A stretch of DNA of 45,511 nt from Escherichia phage vB_Ec-G8. Below are positions 3,470 to 44,954 of the stretch, piece by piece (position 1 is the stretch's first letter; each line of letters starts with the position of its first letter). A program made the translations under genes and the position numbers. The notes under the pieces are model-generated. The model had not been told where the DNA came from, searched no databases, and saw only the letters and a list, made by a program, of their open reading frames with translations. The stretch lies in sequence record PQ433350.1; one strand, 5' to 3'.

Positions 3470-3495
3470 AGGCCCCTGGTGGGGCCTTTTCTTTT
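3470..3495. terminator. Bidirectional intrinsic terminator after gpJ
   Basis: AGGCCCC-tggt-GGGGCCT hairpin + TTTTCTTTT. Confidence 0.7.
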
Positions 3496-4456
3496 AGTAG
3501 AAGTTTGGAATGAATGGAAGTGCCATTGATATATTTGTGTCGAAAGGGAACTGAGCGCCTGATTGCGTCGAGTAGTTACCAATTACAGTACCTGGCACTG
3601 CTCTAACGTTACCACCAGACATGCAAATGCCCTTGTATCGCAAGTTGTTATACCCTCCAGTAACTCTAGTCGTAGCGCCACATCTAAGAAGCGGGAAGAA
3701 TCCACCATTTATTGACTGATATACATTGCTTATTTGTATAAATCCACTAAGTACAAATGGTCGCCTAACGCTGGAGAAAACAATCTGACCAGAGCTATTT
3801 GACATTGTAAGACCAGGTCCAGCTACTGGAGGTTCATTCCTGAATATCACCAACTGAACGTAAGTGCTTGCCGCCACATCATCTATACCACCATAGTTTA
3901 CATCACGGCACCATATCGTACTCCCATCACTCTCCAGAGACACGTTTGGATTATCCCACTTACCGAATGGTATTCCACTGACTGGCAGTGCTGATGATCC
4001 GTTAACCTGAATACCACCAACCCATGCCGCTGACATTAGCCGTGAGTTGCTTGATATTGCCAAGAAGTCAGTTGAGTTTTCAACTAGTATTCCTGGGCTT
4101 GATGAAGATGAGGCTGGTAGAATTTCAAAACAATTACCAGCAAAGTCAATTATTCGACCATTGGCTCCGTTAAAGTTACTAAGTGTTATCCTGCCAGTGC
4201 CGTCATTTACCTTTTGGAATCCGTTCATGTAATAAACTTCTGGTATAACATCGTAAGCGTCAACGTGGACTGCCTTCGTTGGTAGGCAGAAAGCCGTAGA
4301 GCCATGAGACATTGTCAATCCAAAATCCCACGAACTTGCTGGGGTTGAAAGTCCATTGGTATTTATTGATCCAGTCACAGCAGGTGCCCTTAACCCTGCC
4401 GTAATCTCCATCGCTGGCCTTCCGTCATTAAGGTCAATCAATATACCCTGCGGCAT
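3494..4456 (-). CDS. Putative receptor-binding / tail-associated protein (320 aa), Gly/Ser/Asn-rich
   Basis: ORF-track start is GTG; first ATG at 4456 overlaps the TAA of the upstream lipoprotein gene (TAATG coupling); sits immediately downstream of gpJ on the opposite strand; function inferred from position only. Confidence 0.5.
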   Translation of the reverse strand: MPQGILIDLNDGRPAMEITAGLRAPAVTGSINTNGLSTPASSWDFGLTMSHGSTAFCLPTKAVHVDAYDVIPEVYYMNGFQKVNDGTGRITLSNFNGANGRIIDFAGNCFEILPASSSSSPGILVENSTDFLAISSNSRLMSAAWVGGIQVNGSSALPVSGIPFGKWDNPNVSLESDGSTIWCRDVNYGGIDDVAASTYVQLVIFRNEPPVAGPGLTMSNSSGQIVFSSVRRPFVLSGFIQISNVYQSINGGFFPLLRCGATTRVTGGYNNLRYKGICMSGGNVRAVPGTVIGNYSTQSGAQFPFDTNISMALPFIPNFY

Positions 4457-4701
4457 TATTTCCACTCCTTGCTGCCATGATCTGCAATAGAGCCACCGTA
4501 ACCTCCGCCAGCCTTGCTTTCAATTCCGGCGTAGCGAACATCAACCTCACCAGCCGGAACAACTACGCCACCTTTCCATTTAGCTACGCACACACCATTT
4601 GCTTGTGTTGCACACCAACCATCCGGGCGAGGACCAGATGAGCAACCTACCATCATGATTGCTGCTGCGGCGATGATTACTGATTTGATTAAGTTAGTCA
4701 T
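4456..4701 (-). CDS. cor: Cor/Llp-like superinfection-exclusion lipoprotein (81 aa)
   Basis: N-terminal hydrophobic signal ending in lipobox MVGC-SS, small Gly-rich mature part; AAGGA RBS 9 nt upstream; coupled to the downstream 320-aa ORF. Confidence 0.7.
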
Positions 4702-4767: not shown

Positions 4768-4787
4768 TTTAGCAATTAGTGCTATTT
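4768..4787 (-). promoter_or_regulatory. Boundary element copy (AATAGCAC-N5-TGCTAAA core), precedes cor
   Basis: Minus-oriented core; Rha TAG stop inside; leader ...CCACATCGAAACGAAACGAA then cor ATG. Confidence 0.6.
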
Positions 4788-12771: not shown

Positions 12772-13245
12772 TTACTCTTTAGCTTTTCGTGCTGCTTCGT
12801 TGGCTGCCTTAATTTTGCGCCATGAGCGACACTCTGGTTTAGTTGCTAGCTCAGCCTCAGTAACAACACGCAGCATATGACGCTTCTTGCAACGTAGAGT
12901 TAGCGGTTTCCCGTTACCGTCGAATTGCAGATCTGGTCGGCAGAATGTAGCGCGAAAACCTTCTCCATTTCGCTTATAGTAGTTGTGCGACAACTGAGCG
13001 CCGCGCGCAGAAATCATCCCACGCTTAAACCATTCTTCTACAGCCTGAGGTGTCACCTTTAACTGCTTTGCGATATTTGCCTTTGTGCCGAAGAAATCAA
13101 GAACAATCTCCAGTCGCGCACGTAAACCCGCCCTTACCTCATCTTTCAAAACGTAGTAACCTGAAGGTCGTTTACGTTGCTTCTTATCTTGTGTGCGGAC
13201 GGTCCCGTTATTGCCGTTAATTGTTCGCTTGTCAACTGCATTCAT
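12772..13245 (-). CDS. Putative HTH DNA-binding protein
   Basis: Basic protein with helix-turn-helix-like segment (NIAKQLKVTPQAVEEWFKRG); start placed at ATG 13245 with GAGGT SD rather than ORF-track start 13281. Confidence 0.55.
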   Translation of the reverse strand: MNAVDKRTINGNNGTVRTQDKKQRKRPSGYYVLKDEVRAGLRARLEIVLDFFGTKANIAKQLKVTPQAVEEWFKRGMISARGAQLSHNYYKRNGEGFRATFCRPDLQFDGNGKPLTLRCKKRHMLRVVTEAELATKPECRSWRKIKAANEAARKAKE

Positions 13246-13346
13246 TTCATTACCTCGATAGCATTTTTTGTTAAAAGTCATTCTGATTTGATAGTATTAT
13301 TGTACTCAATTAAACGCTACAAGACAATTTTTATAGGAATTTAGAT

Positions 13347-19316: not shown

Positions 19317-19393
19317 GCTTCTTTTCCGAACAGGGCTACTGTATCATGTTTACACTAACCTAAACATTGACAAATAGACAAATGGAGGATCGC

Positions 19394-19609
19394 ATGAGGG
19401 AGGTAATCAACGCCGCTACGGCGTCAACTGGAGGGGCAGCGGTAACTGGTGCGGCAACTGGTCAAATGACTATAGCAATAATCAGCCTTGTCGCTTTAAT
19501 CATTTTTGGCGCATGGGGTGCTTACTGGAAGTTTAAGGATAGCCAGGCGATTCGCAGAGCGCTTGAATCGGGAGACCTGAAAACAGCAATCAATATAAGG
19601 AGTAAGTAA
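19394..19609 (+). CDS. Holin (single TMD)
   Basis: 71 aa from ATG 19394 (GGAGG SD 5 nt upstream); one hydrophobic helix (IAIISLVALIIFGAWGAYW) with charged C-terminus; immediately upstream of the endolysin. Confidence 0.65.
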   Translation: MREVINAATASTGGAAVTGAATGQMTIAIISLVALIIFGAWGAYWKFKDSQAIRRALESGDLKTAINIRSK

Positions 19610-20095
19610 ATGAAGCAGAAGCTGCTAATTAGCGCGGCTACGACTGCGGCAATATACATCGCAGCGCCGCTTATTGAACTCGTTGAGGGTGTGGAGAACA
19701 AGCCTTACATTGATATTGCTGGGGTGAAAACCGTATGTGCCGGAATTACCGGTCCTGACGTTGTTTGGGGTAAGACTTACAGCAACAGGGAGTGCCGGAA
19801 CCTGCTGGAGAAACACATCCAGATTCATGCTAAGTATGTTCAGGATGCAGTTACCTACCCAATCGCGCAGCAGACAAGGGCAGCGTTAATCAGCTTTAGC
19901 TATAATGTTGGCGGCTCAGCGATGAGGAAGTCTACGGCTGTAAGGCTAATCAACCAGGGTAAAGTGGAGCAAGGTTGTAAGGCTTTGAGTATTTGGAATA
20001 AAGCTACCGTTAATGGCAAGAAGGTTGTGGTTAAGGGCTTGGTAAACCGCAGGAATGAGGAGATTAAGTTATGCTTAAGCGGATTGCAGCGTTAG
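19610..20095 (+). CDS. SAR endolysin (T4-lysozyme-like muramidase)
   Basis: 161 aa; weakly hydrophobic N-terminal signal-anchor-release segment followed by E...D...T catalytic arrangement (ELVEGVE...DIAGV...T); AAGGAG RBS. Confidence 0.85.
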   Translation: MKQKLLISAATTAAIYIAAPLIELVEGVENKPYIDIAGVKTVCAGITGPDVVWGKTYSNRECRNLLEKHIQIHAKYVQDAVTYPIAQQTRAALISFSYNVGGSAMRKSTAVRLINQGKVEQGCKALSIWNKATVNGKKVVVKGLVNRRNEEIKLCLSGLQR

Positions 20096-20460
20096 TAATG
20101 TGCGTAGCTTTATATGGATGTTCAGCAACATCTGCTCTGACCGGATTAATTGGAAGTAAGCCTGAAGTTACGGCTCAGGCTGGTGCCGAGAACAATAAGG
20201 TTGGTGTTGGGTTAACGAACAAGGTTGACTCCAGTAACTCCAGCGATGCCACAGTTAAGGATTCCAGCGTGGGCTCACTTGATAGTTCTAGCGGGAAAAA
20301 GACTGCTGATAATTCGATTAAGGCCTCTACAATCACTGCCGAAAAGATTGAGATTACCAATAACGACTCATCAGCGCTTCCGTGGATTGGAACAGGAGCG
20401 ATGGGTTTGCTTGTTCTGATTCTCCTTGCCTTAATCTTAAGACGTAAAAAAGCCTCCTAA
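20071..20460 (+). CDS. Unimolecular spanin (lipoprotein signal + C-terminal TMD)
   Basis: 129 aa; lipobox LYGC-S at N-terminus, Ser-rich periplasmic region, C-terminal TMD (AMGLLVLILLALIL) and basic tail; overlaps the endolysin 3' end; terminator follows. Confidence 0.8.
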   Translation: MLKRIAALVMCVALYGCSATSALTGLIGSKPEVTAQAGAENNKVGVGLTNKVDSSNSSDATVKDSSVGSLDSSSGKKTADNSIKASTITAEKIEITNNDSSALPWIGTGAMGLLVLILLALILRRKKAS

Positions 20461-31809: not shown

Positions 31810-31830
31810 CCACAAAAGCTATGATAAACT

Positions 31831-31853
31831 AGCCCCTAAATGGGGCTTTTTTA
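31831..31853 (+). terminator. Terminator-RBS module before portal
   Basis: AGCCCC-taaat-GGGGCT + T6 then ATTGGAGA RBS. Confidence 0.75.
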
Positions 31854-31865
31854 TTGGAGAAAAAC

Positions 31866-34769: not shown

Positions 34770-34786
34770 TAGTTAAGACTAAACTA

Positions 34787-34808
34787 ACCCGCTTCGGCGG
34801 GTTTTTTA
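34787..34808 (+). terminator. Rho-independent terminator (UUCG loop)
   Basis: ACCCGC-ttcg-GCGGGT + T6. Confidence 0.75.
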
Positions 34809-34892
34809 TTGCCTATCATCTCATCATTGCGTGGTCTAAAAACTCGTGTATAATGAACACGTAGACACCTAACTGAAAAGGAACAATAAAGA

Positions 34893-37819: not shown

Positions 37820-38476
37820 ATGGCCCATCTCAGCAATGGCACGCAGGTCTTCGTAGAAGGCTCTCGCGGAGCTGCAATTGACGTAACAGCAATTTCTAAC
37901 GCAGTTACCCCTGTTTTAACTGTATCTGACGCATCAGGCTTGGTTGTTGGTGATTACCTGCTTTTCACCTTCTCTGCTTCGACGCTTCTGGCTGACAAGC
38001 AGGTTCGCGTAACTGCAATCTCTGGCACGTCAGTAACTGTTGAAGGTATTGATACCTCCAGCACTACCAAGTTCCCAGCTGGTTTAACTGGTGAAGTTGT
38101 TAAGATCACTTCATGGTTCGAAGTTCCGTGCGTTCAGGACGTATCCACTGATGGCGGCGAGCAGCAGTTCGTTAACTTCCAGTGTCTTTCTGATGACCGT
38201 GAACAGCAGATTCCGACTTATAAATCTGCCGTAACAAACACCTTTACATTTGCTCATGAGTACACTAACCCGGTTTATCCGGTTCTTCGCAACTACGATG
38301 AGTCGGGTCAGGTTGTTGCGATTCGACTGTTCGTACCTCGCGCTAGCGAAATGCGTTTGCAGTCTGGTACTATCGCTTTCAACGACACCCCTACCATTGG
38401 TGTTAACGAAATCGAAACGGTATCCATCGCGGTATCAATCCGCGGTCGACTGTCTTCGGTGGCGGCTGAAGTTTAA
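37820..38476 (+). CDS. Major tail protein
   Basis: 218 aa; position between connector genes and chaperones/tape measure; followed by terminator. Confidence 0.75.
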   Translation: MAHLSNGTQVFVEGSRGAAIDVTAISNAVTPVLTVSDASGLVVGDYLLFTFSASTLLADKQVRVTAISGTSVTVEGIDTSSTTKFPAGLTGEVVKITSWFEVPCVQDVSTDGGEQQFVNFQCLSDDREQQIPTYKSAVTNTFTFAHEYTNPVYPVLRNYDESGQVVAIRLFVPRASEMRLQSGTIAFNDTPTIGVNEIETVSIAVSIRGRLSSVAAEV

Positions 38477-38482
38477 AACACA

Positions 38483-38506
38483 AACCCTCTTCGGAGGGTT
38501 TTTTAT
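38483..38506 (+). terminator. Rho-independent terminator after major tail gene (UUCG loop)
   Basis: AACCCTC-ttcg-GAGGGTT + T6. Confidence 0.8.
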
Positions 38507-38509
38507 TAC

Positions 38510-38528
38510 ATAGCACTTTTTGCTAAAG
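38510..38528 (+). promoter_or_regulatory. Boundary element copy inside tail operon, precedes moron 38587
   Basis: ATAGCACTTTTTGCTAAAG, TGTATAGT, CTCATCGAAAAGAAATGAGAG. Confidence 0.65.
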
Positions 38529-38586
38529 CCTTGATTCAATCTTACTGTATAGTTATCTCATCGAAAAGAAATGAGAGATTAAAGAA

Positions 38587-38835
38587 ATGAATAACGTTAA
38601 AAACATCATCAAGCTTGCTGCAGTTCTGGTTGCTTTTTATGCAGCAGTTCAGATCGTCAACCCAACTGGCGAGGCTGATGCGAATAGCAAGGCAAAAAAA
38701 TATACTGTTGAGTTTGCTAAAGCTGAGCGAACATGCAAGGAACTTGTAGGTGGTAAAGTTGACCAAATAATGAAATATGGCAAAGAGGTTTGTAAGGACT
38801 CGGCTGCTAAGATTGCAAAAGAAAACACTAAGTAA
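38587..38835 (+). CDS. Small secreted/membrane-anchored moron protein (82 aa)
   Basis: N-terminal signal-like hydrophobic segment (IIKLAAVLVAFYAAVQIV), Lys-rich with 2 Cys; own element + leader upstream. Confidence 0.5.
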   Translation: MNNVKNIIKLAAVLVAFYAAVQIVNPTGEADANSKAKKYTVEFAKAERTCKELVGGKVDQIMKYGKEVCKDSAAKIAKENTK

Positions 38836-38874
38836 TAGAATACATACTCACAAACAATAAGAGGATTAACTAAG

Positions 38875-39189
38875 ATGGCAAAGTTCAAACTTTCACTGGC
38901 GGCACTGCCAGACTTCAAGCTACCAGTAAAATTCAAACTGGCTAACGACCAGGATGTAGAAGTTATTTTTACAGTTAAGCACAAGAAGACCTCCGAGCTT
39001 CAGGAGTTACTTCAAAAAGAAGACTTGAGTACTAAAGAATTGATTATGGCAATTGCCTCTGACTGGGACCTGGAAGAGGAGTACAACGAGGATAACGTTA
39101 ATGAGTTCTCAGACCTATTCCCAGCCTCAACAGTTGCGCTTACTACAGCTTACATGCAGGCGCTTGCTGGTCAGCGAGTAAAAAACTAA
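38875..39189 (+). CDS. Tail assembly chaperone (gpG-like)
   Basis: 104 aa acidic protein immediately upstream of the tape measure gene; ends at slippery A_AAA_AAC. Confidence 0.7.
   Translation: MAKFKLSLAALPDFKLPVKFKLANDQDVEVIFTVKHKKTSELQELLQKEDLSTKELIMAIASDWDLEEEYNEDNVNEFSDLFPASTVALTTAYMQALAGQRVKN
39180..39186 (+). other. Programmed -1 ribosomal frameshift slippery heptamer A_AAA_AAC
   Basis: X_XXY_YYZ heptamer in the G frame directly before the G stop; -1 frame continues open for 103 codons. Confidence 0.6.
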
Positions 39190-39197
39190 AACGAGCG

Positions 39198-39509
39198 GTG
39201 TATCTACAGTACCAGTCAGAGCCAACTGATGCCGAGCTGGAAGCTATTGGGATGCGCCGCTCTGATTACGAAGATGAAGAGCCTGAAGTTTTGCACTTCG
39301 ACGACAATATGATGAAGGCGTGGGACATTTACTGTTCAATGGCTACACAATGGAGAGTCGGGGCTAACGGAGCTACAGGGTTAGATTACAACGTGCTAAA
39401 TTTCCTCTTTAGAGTGTATAATGTCTCAGAAGAAGAATTGGTGCTCAGCGATTTACGCATCCTTGAAGCTAAGGCTCTTGAGATGATGGATAACCTGAGA
39501 AAAAAATAA
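39198..39509 (+). CDS. Tail assembly chaperone -1 frameshift extension (gpGT-like C-terminal part)
   Basis: -1 frame ORF with no credible independent start, reachable by -1 slip at A_AAA_AAC (39180-39186). Confidence 0.6.
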   Translation: MYLQYQSEPTDAELEAIGMRRSDYEDEEPEVLHFDDNMMKAWDIYCSMATQWRVGANGATGLDYNVLNFLFRVYNVSEEELVLSDLRILEAKALEMMDNLRKK

Positions 39510-39530
39510 CCCGCTTCGGCGGGTTTTCTA
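39509..39530 (+). terminator. Terminator/attenuator hairpin before tape measure (UUCG loop)
   Basis: ACCCGC-ttcg-GCGGGT + TTTTCT. Confidence 0.55.
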
Positions 39531-39544
39531 TTATGGAGGCTTAG

Positions 39545-42553: not shown

Positions 42554-42904
42554 ATGGCTATTGATACTTTTAATTACTGCACTCAAGTCCAAAATGGAGG
42601 CGGCTCATTCTCTAACACTAACAACGTGCGAATTGTTAGCTTCGGCAATGGTTACGAGCAGCGTGGGACTGGCGGTTATCGAAGTAACAAGCGAAGCTAC
42701 CAGATGACTTACACAAACAAGGACTGGCGGGAGGTGATGGAATTTTGCTTTAACCACATCATTACCCCGTTCTTCTGGACTACGCCGCATGGTGACACAT
42801 CAATGTTTGTGATTCAGCAAGATAGCATTAGCGTCACGCCACTCAGTAAGGAAGTTCAGACTGTAAACATGCAATTCGTGGAAGTCTTTAGCTCAATGCG
42901 TTAA
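42554..42904 (+). CDS. Minor tail protein (lambda gpM-like)
   Basis: 116 aa; position between tape measure and gpL-like gene. Confidence 0.75.
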   Translation: MAIDTFNYCTQVQNGGGSFSNTNNVRIVSFGNGYEQRGTGGYRSNKRSYQMTYTNKDWREVMEFCFNHIITPFFWTTPHGDTSMFVIQQDSISVTPLSKEVQTVNMQFVEVFSSMR

Positions 42905-42908
42905 ACTA

Positions 42909-42930
42909 AGCCCCATTAGGGGCTTTTTTA
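42909..42930 (+). terminator. Terminator-RBS module before gpL
   Basis: AGCCCC-atta-GGGGCT + T6 then ATTGGAGA. Confidence 0.7.
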
Positions 42931-42942
42931 TTGGAGAAATAT

Positions 42943-43698
42943 ATGTTAAGTCCAAAGTTTGAAAATCAGTTGCAAAGCCTTTTCCCTGGAGAGATTGTGA
43001 CACTAATCCAGGTTGACGGAACGTCCTTCGGGAGTCTCGTTTATTCGTTCCACAATGAGAACATCTCATACACGCCAGAAGAAATCATGCTTGCCCAGAT
43101 GAATGGAGAGCCATTGCCAGAGAAGACGATCACATTTCGTGGTGAAGAGTACGGACCTAGACCATTTGGAATCTCTGGTATCAATATGACTTCTGACGGA
43201 AAAGCCAACAAGGTTACATTAACAGTATCAAACGTAGACCAGCGCATTAGCGCATTGATTCGCACTTACAATGGATTGGTCAAGGCTAAGGTTACAATCT
43301 GGATTACCACGCGCGATAACATCAATGAAGACGGAAGTATTGCTGATGGGGACTATCGCAGATTTGTTTACTTCATTGAGCGACCAAAGCAGGTTGATTA
43401 CAAAACGGCATCATTTGAGCTAAGTAGCCCGATGGATATGGATGGTATTTATATCCCCGCTAGACTTGTTCAGTCTGTTTGTTATTTCGCTTCTCGCGGA
43501 TGGTATCGAAGTGGTAATGGTTGCGACTACGCTGGTAATCGTTACTTTGACAAGGATGATAATCCAGTAGCAGACCCTTCATTAGACTTCTGCGCAGGAA
43601 CTGTTAACAGTTGCAAGCTTAGATTTGGTGAGAATAATCAGCTTTCATTTGGCGGATGCGCAGCAGCAAGCCTTCAGGCAAAGGCGAATCAGAGTTAA
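42943..43698 (+). CDS. Minor tail protein (lambda gpL-like) with C-terminal Cys cluster
   Basis: 251 aa from ATG 42943 (GGAGA SD; ORF-track start is TTG); C-terminal Cys cluster (C-x...C-x...C-x...C) as in Fe-S-binding gpL. Confidence 0.8.
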   Translation: MLSPKFENQLQSLFPGEIVTLIQVDGTSFGSLVYSFHNENISYTPEEIMLAQMNGEPLPEKTITFRGEEYGPRPFGISGINMTSDGKANKVTLTVSNVDQRISALIRTYNGLVKAKVTIWITTRDNINEDGSIADGDYRRFVYFIERPKQVDYKTASFELSSPMDMDGIYIPARLVQSVCYFASRGWYRSGNGCDYAGNRYFDKDDNPVADPSLDFCAGTVNSCKLRFGENNQLSFGGCAAASLQAKANQS

Positions 43699-43717
43699 AT
43701 AGCACTTTTTGCTAAAG
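43699..43717 (+). promoter_or_regulatory. Boundary element copy inside tail operon, precedes moron 43772
   Basis: TAA-ATAGCACTTTTTGCTAAAG, hairpin, TATAGT, CTCACACAAACGAGAGG. Confidence 0.65.
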
Positions 43718-43771
43718 ACGAACAGCAAAGGATGGCGTATAGTTACCTCACACAAACGAGAGGATATAAAA

Positions 43772-44137
43772 ATGTTCTACATTGAATTCAACGGATACAA
43801 AAAAGACAAAGAAGAGTGCGGTGGTTTATTTTCTGTTGGTAAAACTTACGCATGTGATGTTGTTGACTCAGGTGTTTACTATCAGGTTATGGATGATGAA
43901 GGTAAAGCTGTAAAATTTAGAAGCATGTTTTATGATAATTATTACAGCTTTTCACGAGTTGAACATAATGAGGTGGAGGTCAATTTGTTAAGTGATACAA
44001 ATGATGGCAAGATGAAATATAGAATGAATGGTATTGATGTTACTAAGTCATTCTTTGATGAAAAACTGATTGAGGCTGAGGGGCTTAAATCCAAGGGTGT
44101 TTCAGTGCTTATAGATTTTGAGGTTTATTTTGAATAA
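43772..44137 (+). CDS. Hypothetical moron protein (121 aa), paralog of 31477-31809
   Basis: ATG 43772 preceded by full element + leader (CACACAAACGAGAGGATATAAAA); terminator downstream. Confidence 0.5.
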   Translation: MFYIEFNGYKKDKEECGGLFSVGKTYACDVVDSGVYYQVMDDEGKAVKFRSMFYDNYYSFSRVEHNEVEVNLLSDTNDGKMKYRMNGIDVTKSFFDEKLIEAEGLKSKGVSVLIDFEVYFE

Positions 44138-44156: not shown

Positions 44157-44184
44157 AGGTCAATCGAAAGGTTGGCCTTTTTTA
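44157..44184 (+). terminator. Terminator-RBS module before gpK
   Basis: AGGTCAA-tcgaaagg-TTGGCCT (one G-U) + T6 then ATTGGAGA. Confidence 0.6.
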
Positions 44185-44195
44185 TTGGAGATAAA

Positions 44196-44954
44196 ATGTT
44201 AACACCAAAAGTTAAGCTGGAAATCTTCCAGCACGCAAAAGAAGTCTTCCCGCATGAGTGCTGCGGGATTGTTACGCAGAAAGGTAGGGCGCAGAAATAC
44301 CACAGAATCAAGAACGCCAGCAAAGACCCTGAAAATGAATTCATCCTTGATTCAAATGAGTATGCAGATGTTCTCTTTGAGTTGGCTCACAATGAATCTA
44401 TTGTTTACGTAGTCCACTCCCATACTGGTGATGGAGCGACAACGAGGCCTAGCCCAGCAGATATCTGTAGCTGCAATGAATGCGAGATCCCTTACGTTAT
44501 TGTAAGCATACCAGAGGGAGATATGCGGATTCTTGAACCATCAACCATGCCGCTGATTGGTCGACCATGGGGGCTTGGTAGCTTTGACTGCTGGGGTCTT
44601 GTGATGGGATTCCACAAGAAATACGGAGTAAAACTGAATGACTACCGAGTCAATTACCCGTGGTGGGAGAAAAGGTACAATGAAAATACCTATGACGACA
44701 ACTGGATTAAGGAAGGATTTGAGCTGGTAAAAACTTCAGATATTCCGATTGGATCAATGATTATGATGCAGGTGCAAAGTGATGTGACAAACCACGCCGG
44801 AATCTACATTGGAAATAACAGATTCATTCATCACCTTTATGGCAAAATGAGTTCAGTTGATATCTACTCCGATTACTGGCGAGAGCGCACTGTGCGAATC
44901 GTTCGCCATAAGGATTTACCAGAGGATGTAATTTATGACCCAGAAACTGATTGA
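44196..44954 (+). CDS. Tail assembly protein (lambda gpK-like; JAMM/MPN + NlpC/P60 domains)
   Basis: 252 aa from ATG 44196; JAMM motif (HSHTGDGATTRPSPADI), C-terminal NlpC/P60-like Cys-His region. Confidence 0.85.
   Translation: MLTPKVKLEIFQHAKEVFPHECCGIVTQKGRAQKYHRIKNASKDPENEFILDSNEYADVLFELAHNESIVYVVHSHTGDGATTRPSPADICSCNECEIPYVIVSIPEGDMRILEPSTMPLIGRPWGLGSFDCWGLVMGFHKKYGVKLNDYRVNYPWWEKRYNENTYDDNWIKEGFELVKTSDIPIGSMIMMQVQSDVTNHAGIYIGNNRFIHHLYGKMSSVDIYSDYWRERTVRIVRHKDLPEDVIYDPETD

Follow-up and report, generated by a model that had tools for sequence, protein, structure and literature searches.

An optional gene for a predicted exported protein in an exchangeable slot of the tail operon of a T1/Rtp-like coliphage

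Next to the G/GT tail chaperone genes of the temperate phage HK97 lies a moron for gp15, a small, YebO-like inner-membrane protein of superinfection exclusion, which keeps DNA from entering the cell while leaving the receptor alone (Cumby et al. 2012, reviewed in PMC3594210). T5 Llp, T1/phi80 Cor and Rtp45 are small, Sec-exported, disulfide-containing periplasmic proteins with which virulent siphophages alter the envelope; they are lipoproteins that fit the receptor type of the phage, their genes adjoin that of the receptor-binding protein, and Rtp45 has been structurally shown to bind LptDE (bioRxiv 10.1101/2025.07.07.663478; PMC8594841). We report here on ORF82, an 82-codon open reading frame (ORF) of Escherichia phage vB_Ec-G8 (PQ433350.1; the 45,511 nucleotides of this record are called the window below), which lies between the major tail protein gene and the tail chaperone genes and which an earlier note, made from the letters alone, had proposed as a candidate secreted or periplasmic moron. 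ORF82 is part of a discrete cassette that close relatives lack or fill with unrelated cargo, and its product carries the features of a Sec-type signal. We put at roughly 0.3 the probability that it is a non-structural, dispensable accessory gene whose exported product acts on the envelope of the infected cell, in receptor-independent exclusion or modification.

The 1.8 kb around ORF82 are 88–93% identical to coliphages JeanPiccard (Bas02), IME253, CEB_EC3a, MSK and others, all of which belong to the Rtp/Guelphvirus group of the subfamily Braunvirinae (Drexlerviridae); the closest relatives are classed in Drexlerviridae and described as virulent. The window itself is the complete, circularly permuted genome of a T1/Rtp-like Braunvirinae coliphage. 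Its gene order is that of Rtp, with head genes, tail terminator, major tail protein, ORF82, G/GT-type chaperones, tape measure protein, gpM/L/K/I and gpJ, followed on the opposite strand by an Rtp44-like receptor-binding protein and an Rtp45-like lipoprotein.

The cassette is best defined by comparison with SU57, an isolated Braunvirinae coliphage whose tail proteins are 94–98% identical to those of the window (major tail protein 98.2%, chaperone 98.1%, tape measure protein 96.9%, J 96.9%). The SU57 slot contains the terminator, TACCAACC, TGCTATAAT, the leader and the chaperone ATG with no ORF, and no ORF82-like or Rtp34-like sequence was found in its whole genome. Aligned with SU57, the window has an insertion of 326 bp (38510–38835) that begins exactly at a family repeat and ends at the ORF82 stop codon; it comprises the repeat, a −10 box, the leader and ORF82, and it sits between the major-tail terminator and the original chaperone promoter. 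The slot likewise holds no gene in Tempevirinae (KarlJaspers), Rogunavirinae (Sadiya and the loci L018–L023) and Webervirus (Domnhall), in which only a terminator and a −10-like box stand between the major tail gene and the chaperone gene, nor in T1, where gp41 and gp40 are adjacent by numbering. The earlier note had stated, for tail operons of the lambda type, that no gene occupies this position, and SU57, T1 and the three other groups bear this out. ORF82 is confined to Braunvirinae and occurs in 81 phage records, against 1146 for the major tail protein; it is thus neither a tail component conserved across the family nor, as described below, a protein that lacks a signal peptide. ORF82 is an optional add-on, absent from the viable close relative SU57, and appears to be dispensable.

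These observations bear directly on the idea that ORF82 is a subfamily-specific factor of tail assembly or a minor part of the virion. In favour is its place in the tail operon, directly ahead of G/GT, with which it is probably co-transcribed. Against it, the Sec signal does not suit a structure that is assembled in the cytoplasm, as tails are, neither SU57 nor any other subfamily examined has the gene, a lipoprotein takes its place in Rtp, and it is not among the named virion proteins of MSK and the AHP/AHS phages, in analyses shallow enough to miss a small protein. We consider this idea very improbable, and effectively refuted by SU57.

Other relatives use the slot for a different gene. In Rtp the same terminator, repeat, −10 box and leader run up to the ATG and are then followed by rtp34, which encodes a 128-amino-acid lipoprotein (MKAIIAIMATLLLAGC...) unrelated to ORF82; an Rtp34-type lipoprotein also occupies the slot in AugustePiccard, MM01 and RobRod40, and TR1 has there a lipoprotein 28% identical to Rtp34. 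Behind the same terminator, repeat and leader, then, the cargo of Rtp (lipobox LLAGC) and of TR1 (lipobox LTGC) is envelope-targeted as well. Rtp34-type lipoproteins share with ORF82 the slot, the control elements including the ribosome-binding site, predicted export and orphan status, so that they offer no functional clue of their own; they differ in being unrelated in sequence, longer (126–128 amino acids) and lipidated, with Asn after the lipid-bearing Cys. In TR3 (1342–1482 of the locus examined) an additional 46-amino-acid ORF with two hydrophobic helices (phrog_16572) stands between the leader and the ORF82 homolog, and the slot can thus hold two predicted membrane or exported products. 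A 26%-identical relative of Rtp34 with lipobox LTGC was also seen in BEK12A (Warwickvirus, Tempevirinae; 1441–1875 of that locus) between VRR-NUC and Dam methylase genes, and lipoprotein cargo therefore appears to be mobile between slots and subfamilies.

ORF82 itself occurs as three divergent allele types: type A, window-like; type B, in AN_ECEAS and TR3 (~58% identical to that of the window); and type C, in ACG-M12 (~51%). In ACG-M12 the tail module is 94–98% identical to that of the window (tape measure protein 98.5%, J 97.5%) while ORF82 is 51–56% identical with saturated synonymous sites, which makes ORF82 a sharp island of divergence. Exclusion linked to the receptor was considered for ORF82 and rejected. 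The receptor-binding protein and its lipoprotein are 94% and 96% identical between the window and ACG-M12, where ORF82 is only ~51% identical, and the cargo does not follow the receptor: JeanPiccard (receptor LptD) and IME253 (FepA) share type A, whereas AugustePiccard (LptD) has the lipoprotein.

Accessory, patchy, fast-diversifying and exchangeable cargo in a fixed slot is also typical of phage counter-defence loci, and ORF82 might accordingly counter a host envelope-associated antiphage defence or an envelope stress response. Its presumed export would take it to the compartment that contains the periplasmic parts of membrane-anchored defence sensors. Neither PADLOC nor an exhaustive profile search returned homology to known defence or anti-defence proteins, no target is known, and the probable late expression of the gene (see below) is ill-suited to blocking entry-stage defences; an anti-defence role seems improbable to us.

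ORF82 is a genuine gene, and purifying selection acts on it. From end to end it matches phrog_22925 (E 1.5e-52), its homologs are annotated at the homologous position in relatives, and its pairwise ratios of nonsynonymous to synonymous divergence (dN/dS) against eight homologs are 0.11–0.27. In a large protein collection its homologs form 38 clusters, all on contigs of ~45 kb, and a word search of 5.8 billion proteins found no prophage copies, all homologs lying on phage contigs of that size. Two overlapping minus-strand ORFs (38542–38766 and 38649–38984) were dismissed as spurious, as the purifying selection sits in the plus-strand frame.

The N-terminus of ORF82 has the organization of a Sec signal peptide, in agreement with the earlier note's description of a hydrophobic, signal-like segment at the start of an 82-residue product. 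A short n-region with K5 and K9 precedes a 15-residue hydrophobic core (L10–V24, mean Kyte-Doolittle hydropathy 2.39), after which come the helix breaker N25-P26 and A30-D31-A32 before N33. In a set of 35 distinct homologs, Ala occupies position 32 (−1) in 34 and A, T, S or V occupies position 30 (−3) in 33, while N33 (+1) is invariant, as one would expect of cleavage by signal peptidase I after residue 32. There is no lipobox and no twin-Arg motif, and the first Cys is residue 50. In phage MSK, SignalP 4.1 gave just two positives, the Rtp45-like lipoprotein and MSK_000011, in which TMHMM also called a transmembrane helix (PMC8421802). We identify MSK_000011 (93.9% identical) as the ORF82 ortholog because it follows MSK_000010, the major tail gene, and because MSK_000014 is the 992-amino-acid tape measure protein. 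These features indicate that ORF82 carries a bona fide Sec-type signal, and cleavage by signal peptidase I is most likely, judging from the conserved site, after Ala32.

The hydrophobic segment has, however, a history that is unusual for a signal peptide. Between types A and B, dN is ~0.15 in the signal region and ~0.52 in the mature part (dS is saturated in this comparison, 1.1–1.5), so that the mature part evolves ~3.5 times faster, and Y18, Q22, N25 and P26 are invariant in an unusually conserved signal region. The helix might therefore remain uncleaved, leaving ORF82 as a bitopic protein of the inner membrane, its N-terminus cytoplasmic and its C-terminus periplasmic. The conserved transmembrane helix would then be the working part, as has been proposed for HK97 gp15, and might contact, for example, a host membrane protein or those segments of an incoming tape measure protein that insert into the membrane. 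Such an anchor would account for the persistence of the core motif A-x-L-x-A-F-Y-x-x-x-Q-I-x-N-P-T in all three allele types despite saturated dS; it fits the TMHMM call in the MSK ortholog (PMC8421802) and the 18-residue apolar stretch I7–V24, and the tape measure protein does have hydrophobic segments and is 98.5% conserved where the periplasmic part of ORF82 diverges. On the other hand the core, bounded by K9 and N25-P26, has only 15 residues, few for spanning a membrane stably, the sum on the Hessa scale is unfavourable (+3.9 kcal/mol) in windows of at least 19 residues, the AxA-N site has been maintained in evolution, and in the ortholog SignalP 4.1, which was built to tell anchors from signal peptides, predicted a signal peptide. 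We regard retention of the helix as a possible but doubtful outcome.

The predicted mature peptide is rich in Lys and contains two Cys, as the earlier note had also said: its 50 residues include 12 Lys (24%) and 1 Arg against 7 acidic residues, and Cys50 (38734–38736) and Cys69 (38791–38793) are invariant in all three divergent allele types, as would be expected for a periplasmic disulfide. The peptide is cationic and moderately amphipathic (hydrophobic moment 0.36), a value only marginally above shuffled controls. AlphaFold2 gave a low-confidence three-helix arrangement or hairpin for the full-length protein (mean predicted local distance difference test, pLDDT, 63) and one long helix for the mature part (pLDDT 86). 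As the models keep the two cysteines apart within a monomer, a disulfide-linked oligomer is possible. Remote homology offered little further guidance: scans of Pfam, NCBIfam and PADLOC gave no hit, and PHROGs returned only the protein's own family. Resemblance to the lipoprotein Lpp (helical, ~50 residues, an invariant C-terminal Lys and a 'KVDQ' motif) was considered and rejected at an hhalign probability of 0.5%; the C-terminal Lys is in any case no clue, being found in 10 of 45 proteins of the same phage.

In its logic the closest analogue of ORF82 is HK97 gp15. Both are small (62 amino acids in gp15, 82 in ORF82), with one N-terminal hydrophobic helix and a charged helical tail, both are add-ons inside the tail operon adjoining G/GT, and the receptor-free action of gp15 in the envelope is the role that we propose for ORF82. 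The two are not homologous (hhalign probability 0.3%), and the exhaustive search returned no member of the YebO family. Moreover gp15 lies after G/GT and has its own annotated terminator, whereas ORF82 lies before G/GT and has none; the basic residues follow the helix in gp15 and precede it in ORF82, which gives opposite predicted topologies, and ORF82 has a signal-peptidase site; and gp15 works from the prophage of a temperate phage, whereas the family of the ORF82 phages is virulent. From Llp, Cor and Rtp45 ORF82 differs in having no lipobox and in lying 10 kb from the receptor locus.

That locus (minus strand, 3494–4701) encodes a receptor-binding protein that is 39% identical to Rtp44 and 94% identical to its counterparts in ACG-M12 and SU57, together with an Rtp45 ortholog (4456–4701; 79% identity, lipobox MVGC). 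The role of receptor-blocking exclusion factor belongs to this ortholog, and we rejected it for ORF82. Export-like N-termini are found in four proteins of the phage proteome, namely ORF82, the exclusion lipoprotein, an endolysin resembling those of the signal-anchor-release (SAR) type, and the unimolecular spanin (u-spanin). The endolysin (19610–20095) has a weakly hydrophobic, Ala/Thr-rich N-terminus (MKQKLLISAATTAAIYIAAPLI...), and the product of 20071–20460 has a lipobox (LYGC) and a C-terminal transmembrane helix, as in the T1 unimolecular spanin.

A role of ORF82 in lysis or in the last steps at the envelope was weighed against this background. The protein could be an antiholin-like periplasmic factor or one that modulates endolysin or spanin, in the manner of T4 RI, or it could be a cationic helix that either helps to destabilize the outer membrane or shields progeny from debris. 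The phage T4 proteins Spackle (Sp) and RI each consist of a signal sequence and a small helical periplasmic domain; Sp acts on the superinfecting phage, and RI, which is encoded away from the holin gene, acts on lysis timing in response to superinfection. ORF82 is like them a small, predicted secreted, helical protein of a virulent phage, but its genomic context differs, and it has no similarity to any chain of the Protein Data Bank (PDB) at E ≤ 10, in a set expected to include RI and Spackle. For ORF82, late co-expression is suggested by its place as first gene of the late tail-chaperone unit, its upstream repeat shares the 'T' subgroup with the repeat before the holin region (19001), SAR-like endolysin and u-spanin are systems sensitive to periplasmic and membrane events, and the mature peptide is cationic and moderately amphipathic. 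Yet the amphipathicity barely exceeds that of shuffled sequences, ORF82 is unlinked to the lysis cassette (19367–20460), SU57 lyses cells and forms plaques without it, and the unrelated lipoprotein replaces it in Rtp-like phages whose lysis proteins are 89–94% identical, which argues against a specific lysis partner. We rate a lysis function, like an anti-defence one, as a credible rival, though an unlikely one.

The coordinates of the elements in and around the cassette are collected in Table 1. The terminator that the earlier note placed before ORF82 is indeed there, as a hairpin (38482–38501) followed by a T-run, and it is identical in SU57, Rtp and ACG-M12; the only RNA-family signal in the ORF82 region was a sub-threshold rsmX match over this terminator. 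The boundary element that the same note had assigned to ORF82 is also present (38510–38528), but it proved to be a generic repeat that precedes ~20 transcription units of the window and is not gene-specific. ATAGCACTTTTTGCTAAAG has 12 matches in the window at up to 3 mismatches, against 0.04 expected, and ~22 full promoter-like modules share one layout: the repeat ATAGCACnnnTTGCTAAA, ~22 nt that often contain a small hairpin, TATAGT or TATAAT, a CATCGAAACGA-type leader, a ribosome-binding site and the ATG. Examples lie at 4785−, 7662+, 13258+, 15759+, 18459+, 19001+, 22991−, 23300−, 24477−, 25692+, 26202+, 26922+, 27360+, 28258+, 31404+, 38510+ and 43699+. The re-annotation of phage TLS described a 21-nt repeat, aaATAGCACnnnTTGnTAAAA, ~76 nt upstream of start codons and with A, T and G subgroups; it occurs also in T1, Rtp and Rogue1, and its proposed roles are those of an enhancer, an UP-like element or a 'stoperator' (PMC11447400). 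The copy before ORF82 is like the TLS repeat in group and spacing and is the same as the other copies. What may not have been noted before is that the repeat keeps a fixed distance from the −10 box and that the transcribed leader is conserved. The core of the element forms an inverted repeat (TAGCA-N5-TGCTA), and its TTGCTA lies 22 nt from the −10 box, too far for a sigma-70 −35 element, and for these two reasons binding by a dimeric phage factor is suggested, perhaps the helix-turn-helix regulator at 12772–13281.

Table 1. Features of the ORF82 cassette and its neighbours in the window (positions of PQ433350.1).
Feature	Position	Strand	Details
Major tail (tube) protein gene, left neighbour of the slot	37820..38476	+	PF08813, E 4.9e-68; phrog_584
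Intrinsic terminator after the major tail gene: 8-bp stem, TTCG loop, T-run	38482..38507	+	−11.5 kcal/mol, z −4.08
Drexlerviridae direct repeat ATAGCACTTTTTGCTAAAG, perfect 'T'-group copy, left end of the cassette	38510..38528	+	77 nt upstream of the ATG
−10-like hexamer TATAGT, 22 nt after TTGCTA of the repeat	38548..38553	+	motif only
Conserved leader CATCGAAAAGAAATGAGAGATTAAAGAA with GAGAG ribosome-binding site (38573–38577)	38559..38586	+	same leader before the Rtp and TR1 lipoprotein genes
ORF82, 82 amino acids, ATG start	38587..38835	+	GAGAG ribosome-binding site 38573–38577
Predicted Sec signal peptide, codons 1–32	38587..38682	+	n-region K5/K9, core L10–V24, NP, AxA
Predicted mature peptide, codons 33–82 and stop	38683..38835	+	50 amino acids, 5.6 kDa, pI 9.5, predicted all-helical
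Promoter-like TTGCAA-17-TAGAAT overlapping the ORF82 3' end	38813..38841	+	phiSITE promoter annotated at the same place in CEB_EC3a
Tail assembly chaperone gene (gpG analogue), right neighbour of the slot	38875..39189	+	PF08748, E 3.2e-33
DUF1799 ORF, −1 frame, gpT part of a G/GT-type frameshift product	39198..39509	+	PF08809; frame arithmetic
Next terminator-like hairpin, probable end of the ORF82-G-GT unit	39508..39525	+	repeat family D4

Downstream, TAGAAT at 38836–38841 is a remnant of the chaperone promoter −10 (TGCTATAAT in the empty slot of SU57). The 39 nt between the ORF82 stop and the chaperone start (38836–38874) have no terminator, and their folding is weaker than that of shuffled controls (z +1.3). 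As no terminator follows until 39508, ORF82 probably heads a transcription unit that extends into the G/GT chaperone genes. The literature search turned up no transcriptome of a T1-like phage.

How far ORF82 deserves the name moron depends on the definition. In the sense of Hendrix and Juhala, a moron has its own promoter and terminator, deviant base composition and expression from a repressed prophage (PMC3594210). ORF82 is an extra gene between genes that are adjacent in relatives (SU57, KarlJaspers, Sadiya, Domnhall and the loci L018–L023). Its GC content is only mildly low (39.8%, against 44.2% for the genome and 49% and 43.5% for its neighbours; the 16th percentile of 249-nt windows), with a GC content at third codon positions of 0.36 against 0.44–0.49. 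Of the proposal of an exported moron, the Sec-type signal and the add-on status stand; the strict sense of the term does not, and the word applies only loosely to a gene without its own terminator in a virulent phage.

We favour, at the probability given at the outset, the following course of events. During lytic infection ORF82 would probably be transcribed from the repeat-associated promoter, and transcription would continue into the G/GT genes; the 8.9-kDa precursor would probably be exported by Sec; and cleavage, most likely after Ala32, would free a 5.6-kDa, Lys-rich, all-helical peptide into the periplasm, where the two invariant Cys could be oxidised, possibly between chains. Less likely, the protein would stay anchored in the inner membrane with its N-terminus in the cytoplasm and its C-terminus in the periplasm. 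The target would be the envelope of the infected cell and not the virion, and the role a post-adsorption block or modification that handicaps competing or superinfecting phages and so complements the Rtp45-type lipoprotein. We arrive at an envelope effector because the other exported proteins of the phage act in exclusion or lysis, because the divergence is of the kind seen in an arms race, and because HK97 gp15 sets a precedent beside G/GT. The function in exclusion or in the envelope is speculative.

Several observations count against this proposal. Conservation is higher in the hydrophobic region than in the mature part; this is atypical of a cleaved signal and suggests that the region may be retained and functional. 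The two structure models conflict at G55-G56, and C50 is not near C69 in either. Neither the ORF82 profile nor the mature peptide resembles any PDB sequence at the threshold given above, and an exhaustive hidden Markov model search of 1.84 billion representatives with the profile recovered its own cluster only, which marks the family as an orphan. Exclusion genes of virulent phages, such as T4 imm and sp and T5 llp, are expressed early, whereas the place of ORF82 at the head of the tail-chaperone transcript suggests late expression. A simple sigma-70 scan called no full promoter upstream of ORF82, and a promoter function of the published repeat (PMC11447400) is putative. In gene-by-gene comparisons of the window with ACG-M12 and with Rtp no tail or lysis gene diverged along with ORF82; with no co-variation with the tape measure protein, J or the receptor-binding protein, recognition specific to a cognate tail component is not indicated.

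A second variable slot was seen in the tail operon at 43699–44137, between gpL (42931–43698) and gpK (44172–44954). It is headed by a perfect 'T'-group repeat and carries a cytoplasmic-looking ORF of ~121 amino acids whose translation probably begins at the ATG of MFYIEFNG...; the version in ACG-M12 is 60% identical, and Rtp carries an HNH endonuclease (rtp40) instead. Five related terminator hairpins (repeat family D4, ...AACCCnCTTCGGnGGGTTTTTTATT) lie at 31821–31855, 34776–34810, 38473–38507, 39498–39532 and 42898–42932, where they close the late-operon genes o110, o169, major tail, GT chaperone and tape measure, a layout that fits the 'transcripton' arrangement proposed for T1. The chaperone gene ends in GTA AAA AAC TAA, which contains the slippery heptamer A_AAA_AAC (39180–39186); the DUF1799 ORF is annotated with a GTG start, and phrog_17368 covers both chaperone halves. 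Heptamer and −1-frame ORF together read as a classical gpG/gpGT programmed frameshift. Among public records, near-identical genomes are filed as 'Campylobacter phage A110b' and 'Pseudomonas phage PsgS01F', and a truncated ORF82 homolog on a 46.7-kb contig as a protein of Nitratidesulfovibrio liaohensis; these three are probably T1-like coliphage contaminants and do not point to true hosts.

Parts of this picture were already available: the gene family has been deposited many times as 'hypothetical protein' and has a PHROG, the signal peptide was reported incidentally for MSK, and the repeat has been published. We found no mention, in the literature searched, of a discrete optional cassette, of a slot that swaps exported cargo or of a natural empty-site relative. 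T1/Rtp-like phages are notorious contaminants of laboratories and fermentations and serve as models of small siphophages in receptor engineering, and understanding so far covers only their receptor-specific exclusion lipoproteins; ORF82 adds a second predicted exported accessory protein, in a hot-swappable slot. Nature supplies controls in the empty slot of SU57 and the alternative cargo of Rtp and AugustePiccard, and the BASEL collection (Bas01 against Bas02 and Bas03) offers a clean comparative system for late effects of lytic phages on the periplasm, while the slot shows how a module of family repeat, promoter and leader can serve as a portable cassette for expression. Should ORF82 do nothing measurable, it would be one more orphan small ORF; if it does exclude phages after adsorption, it would be relevant to the design of phage cocktails. 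At about the same probability as the proposal for the single gene, the slot may be a dedicated, recombination-prone envelope-effector site of a strictly virulent phage, in which unrelated Sec-exported cargo (ORF82 alleles A, B and C, Rtp34-type lipoproteins and the TR3 peptide with two transmembrane helices) is exchanged behind a fixed repeat, promoter and leader, with the conserved signal or transmembrane helix of ORF82 as part of the mechanism. It would then be a lytic counterpart of prophage morons and provide a receptor-independent second layer of phage-phage competition or envelope control. ORF82 offers a modest lead on the ways in which lytic phages reshape the envelope of infected cells.

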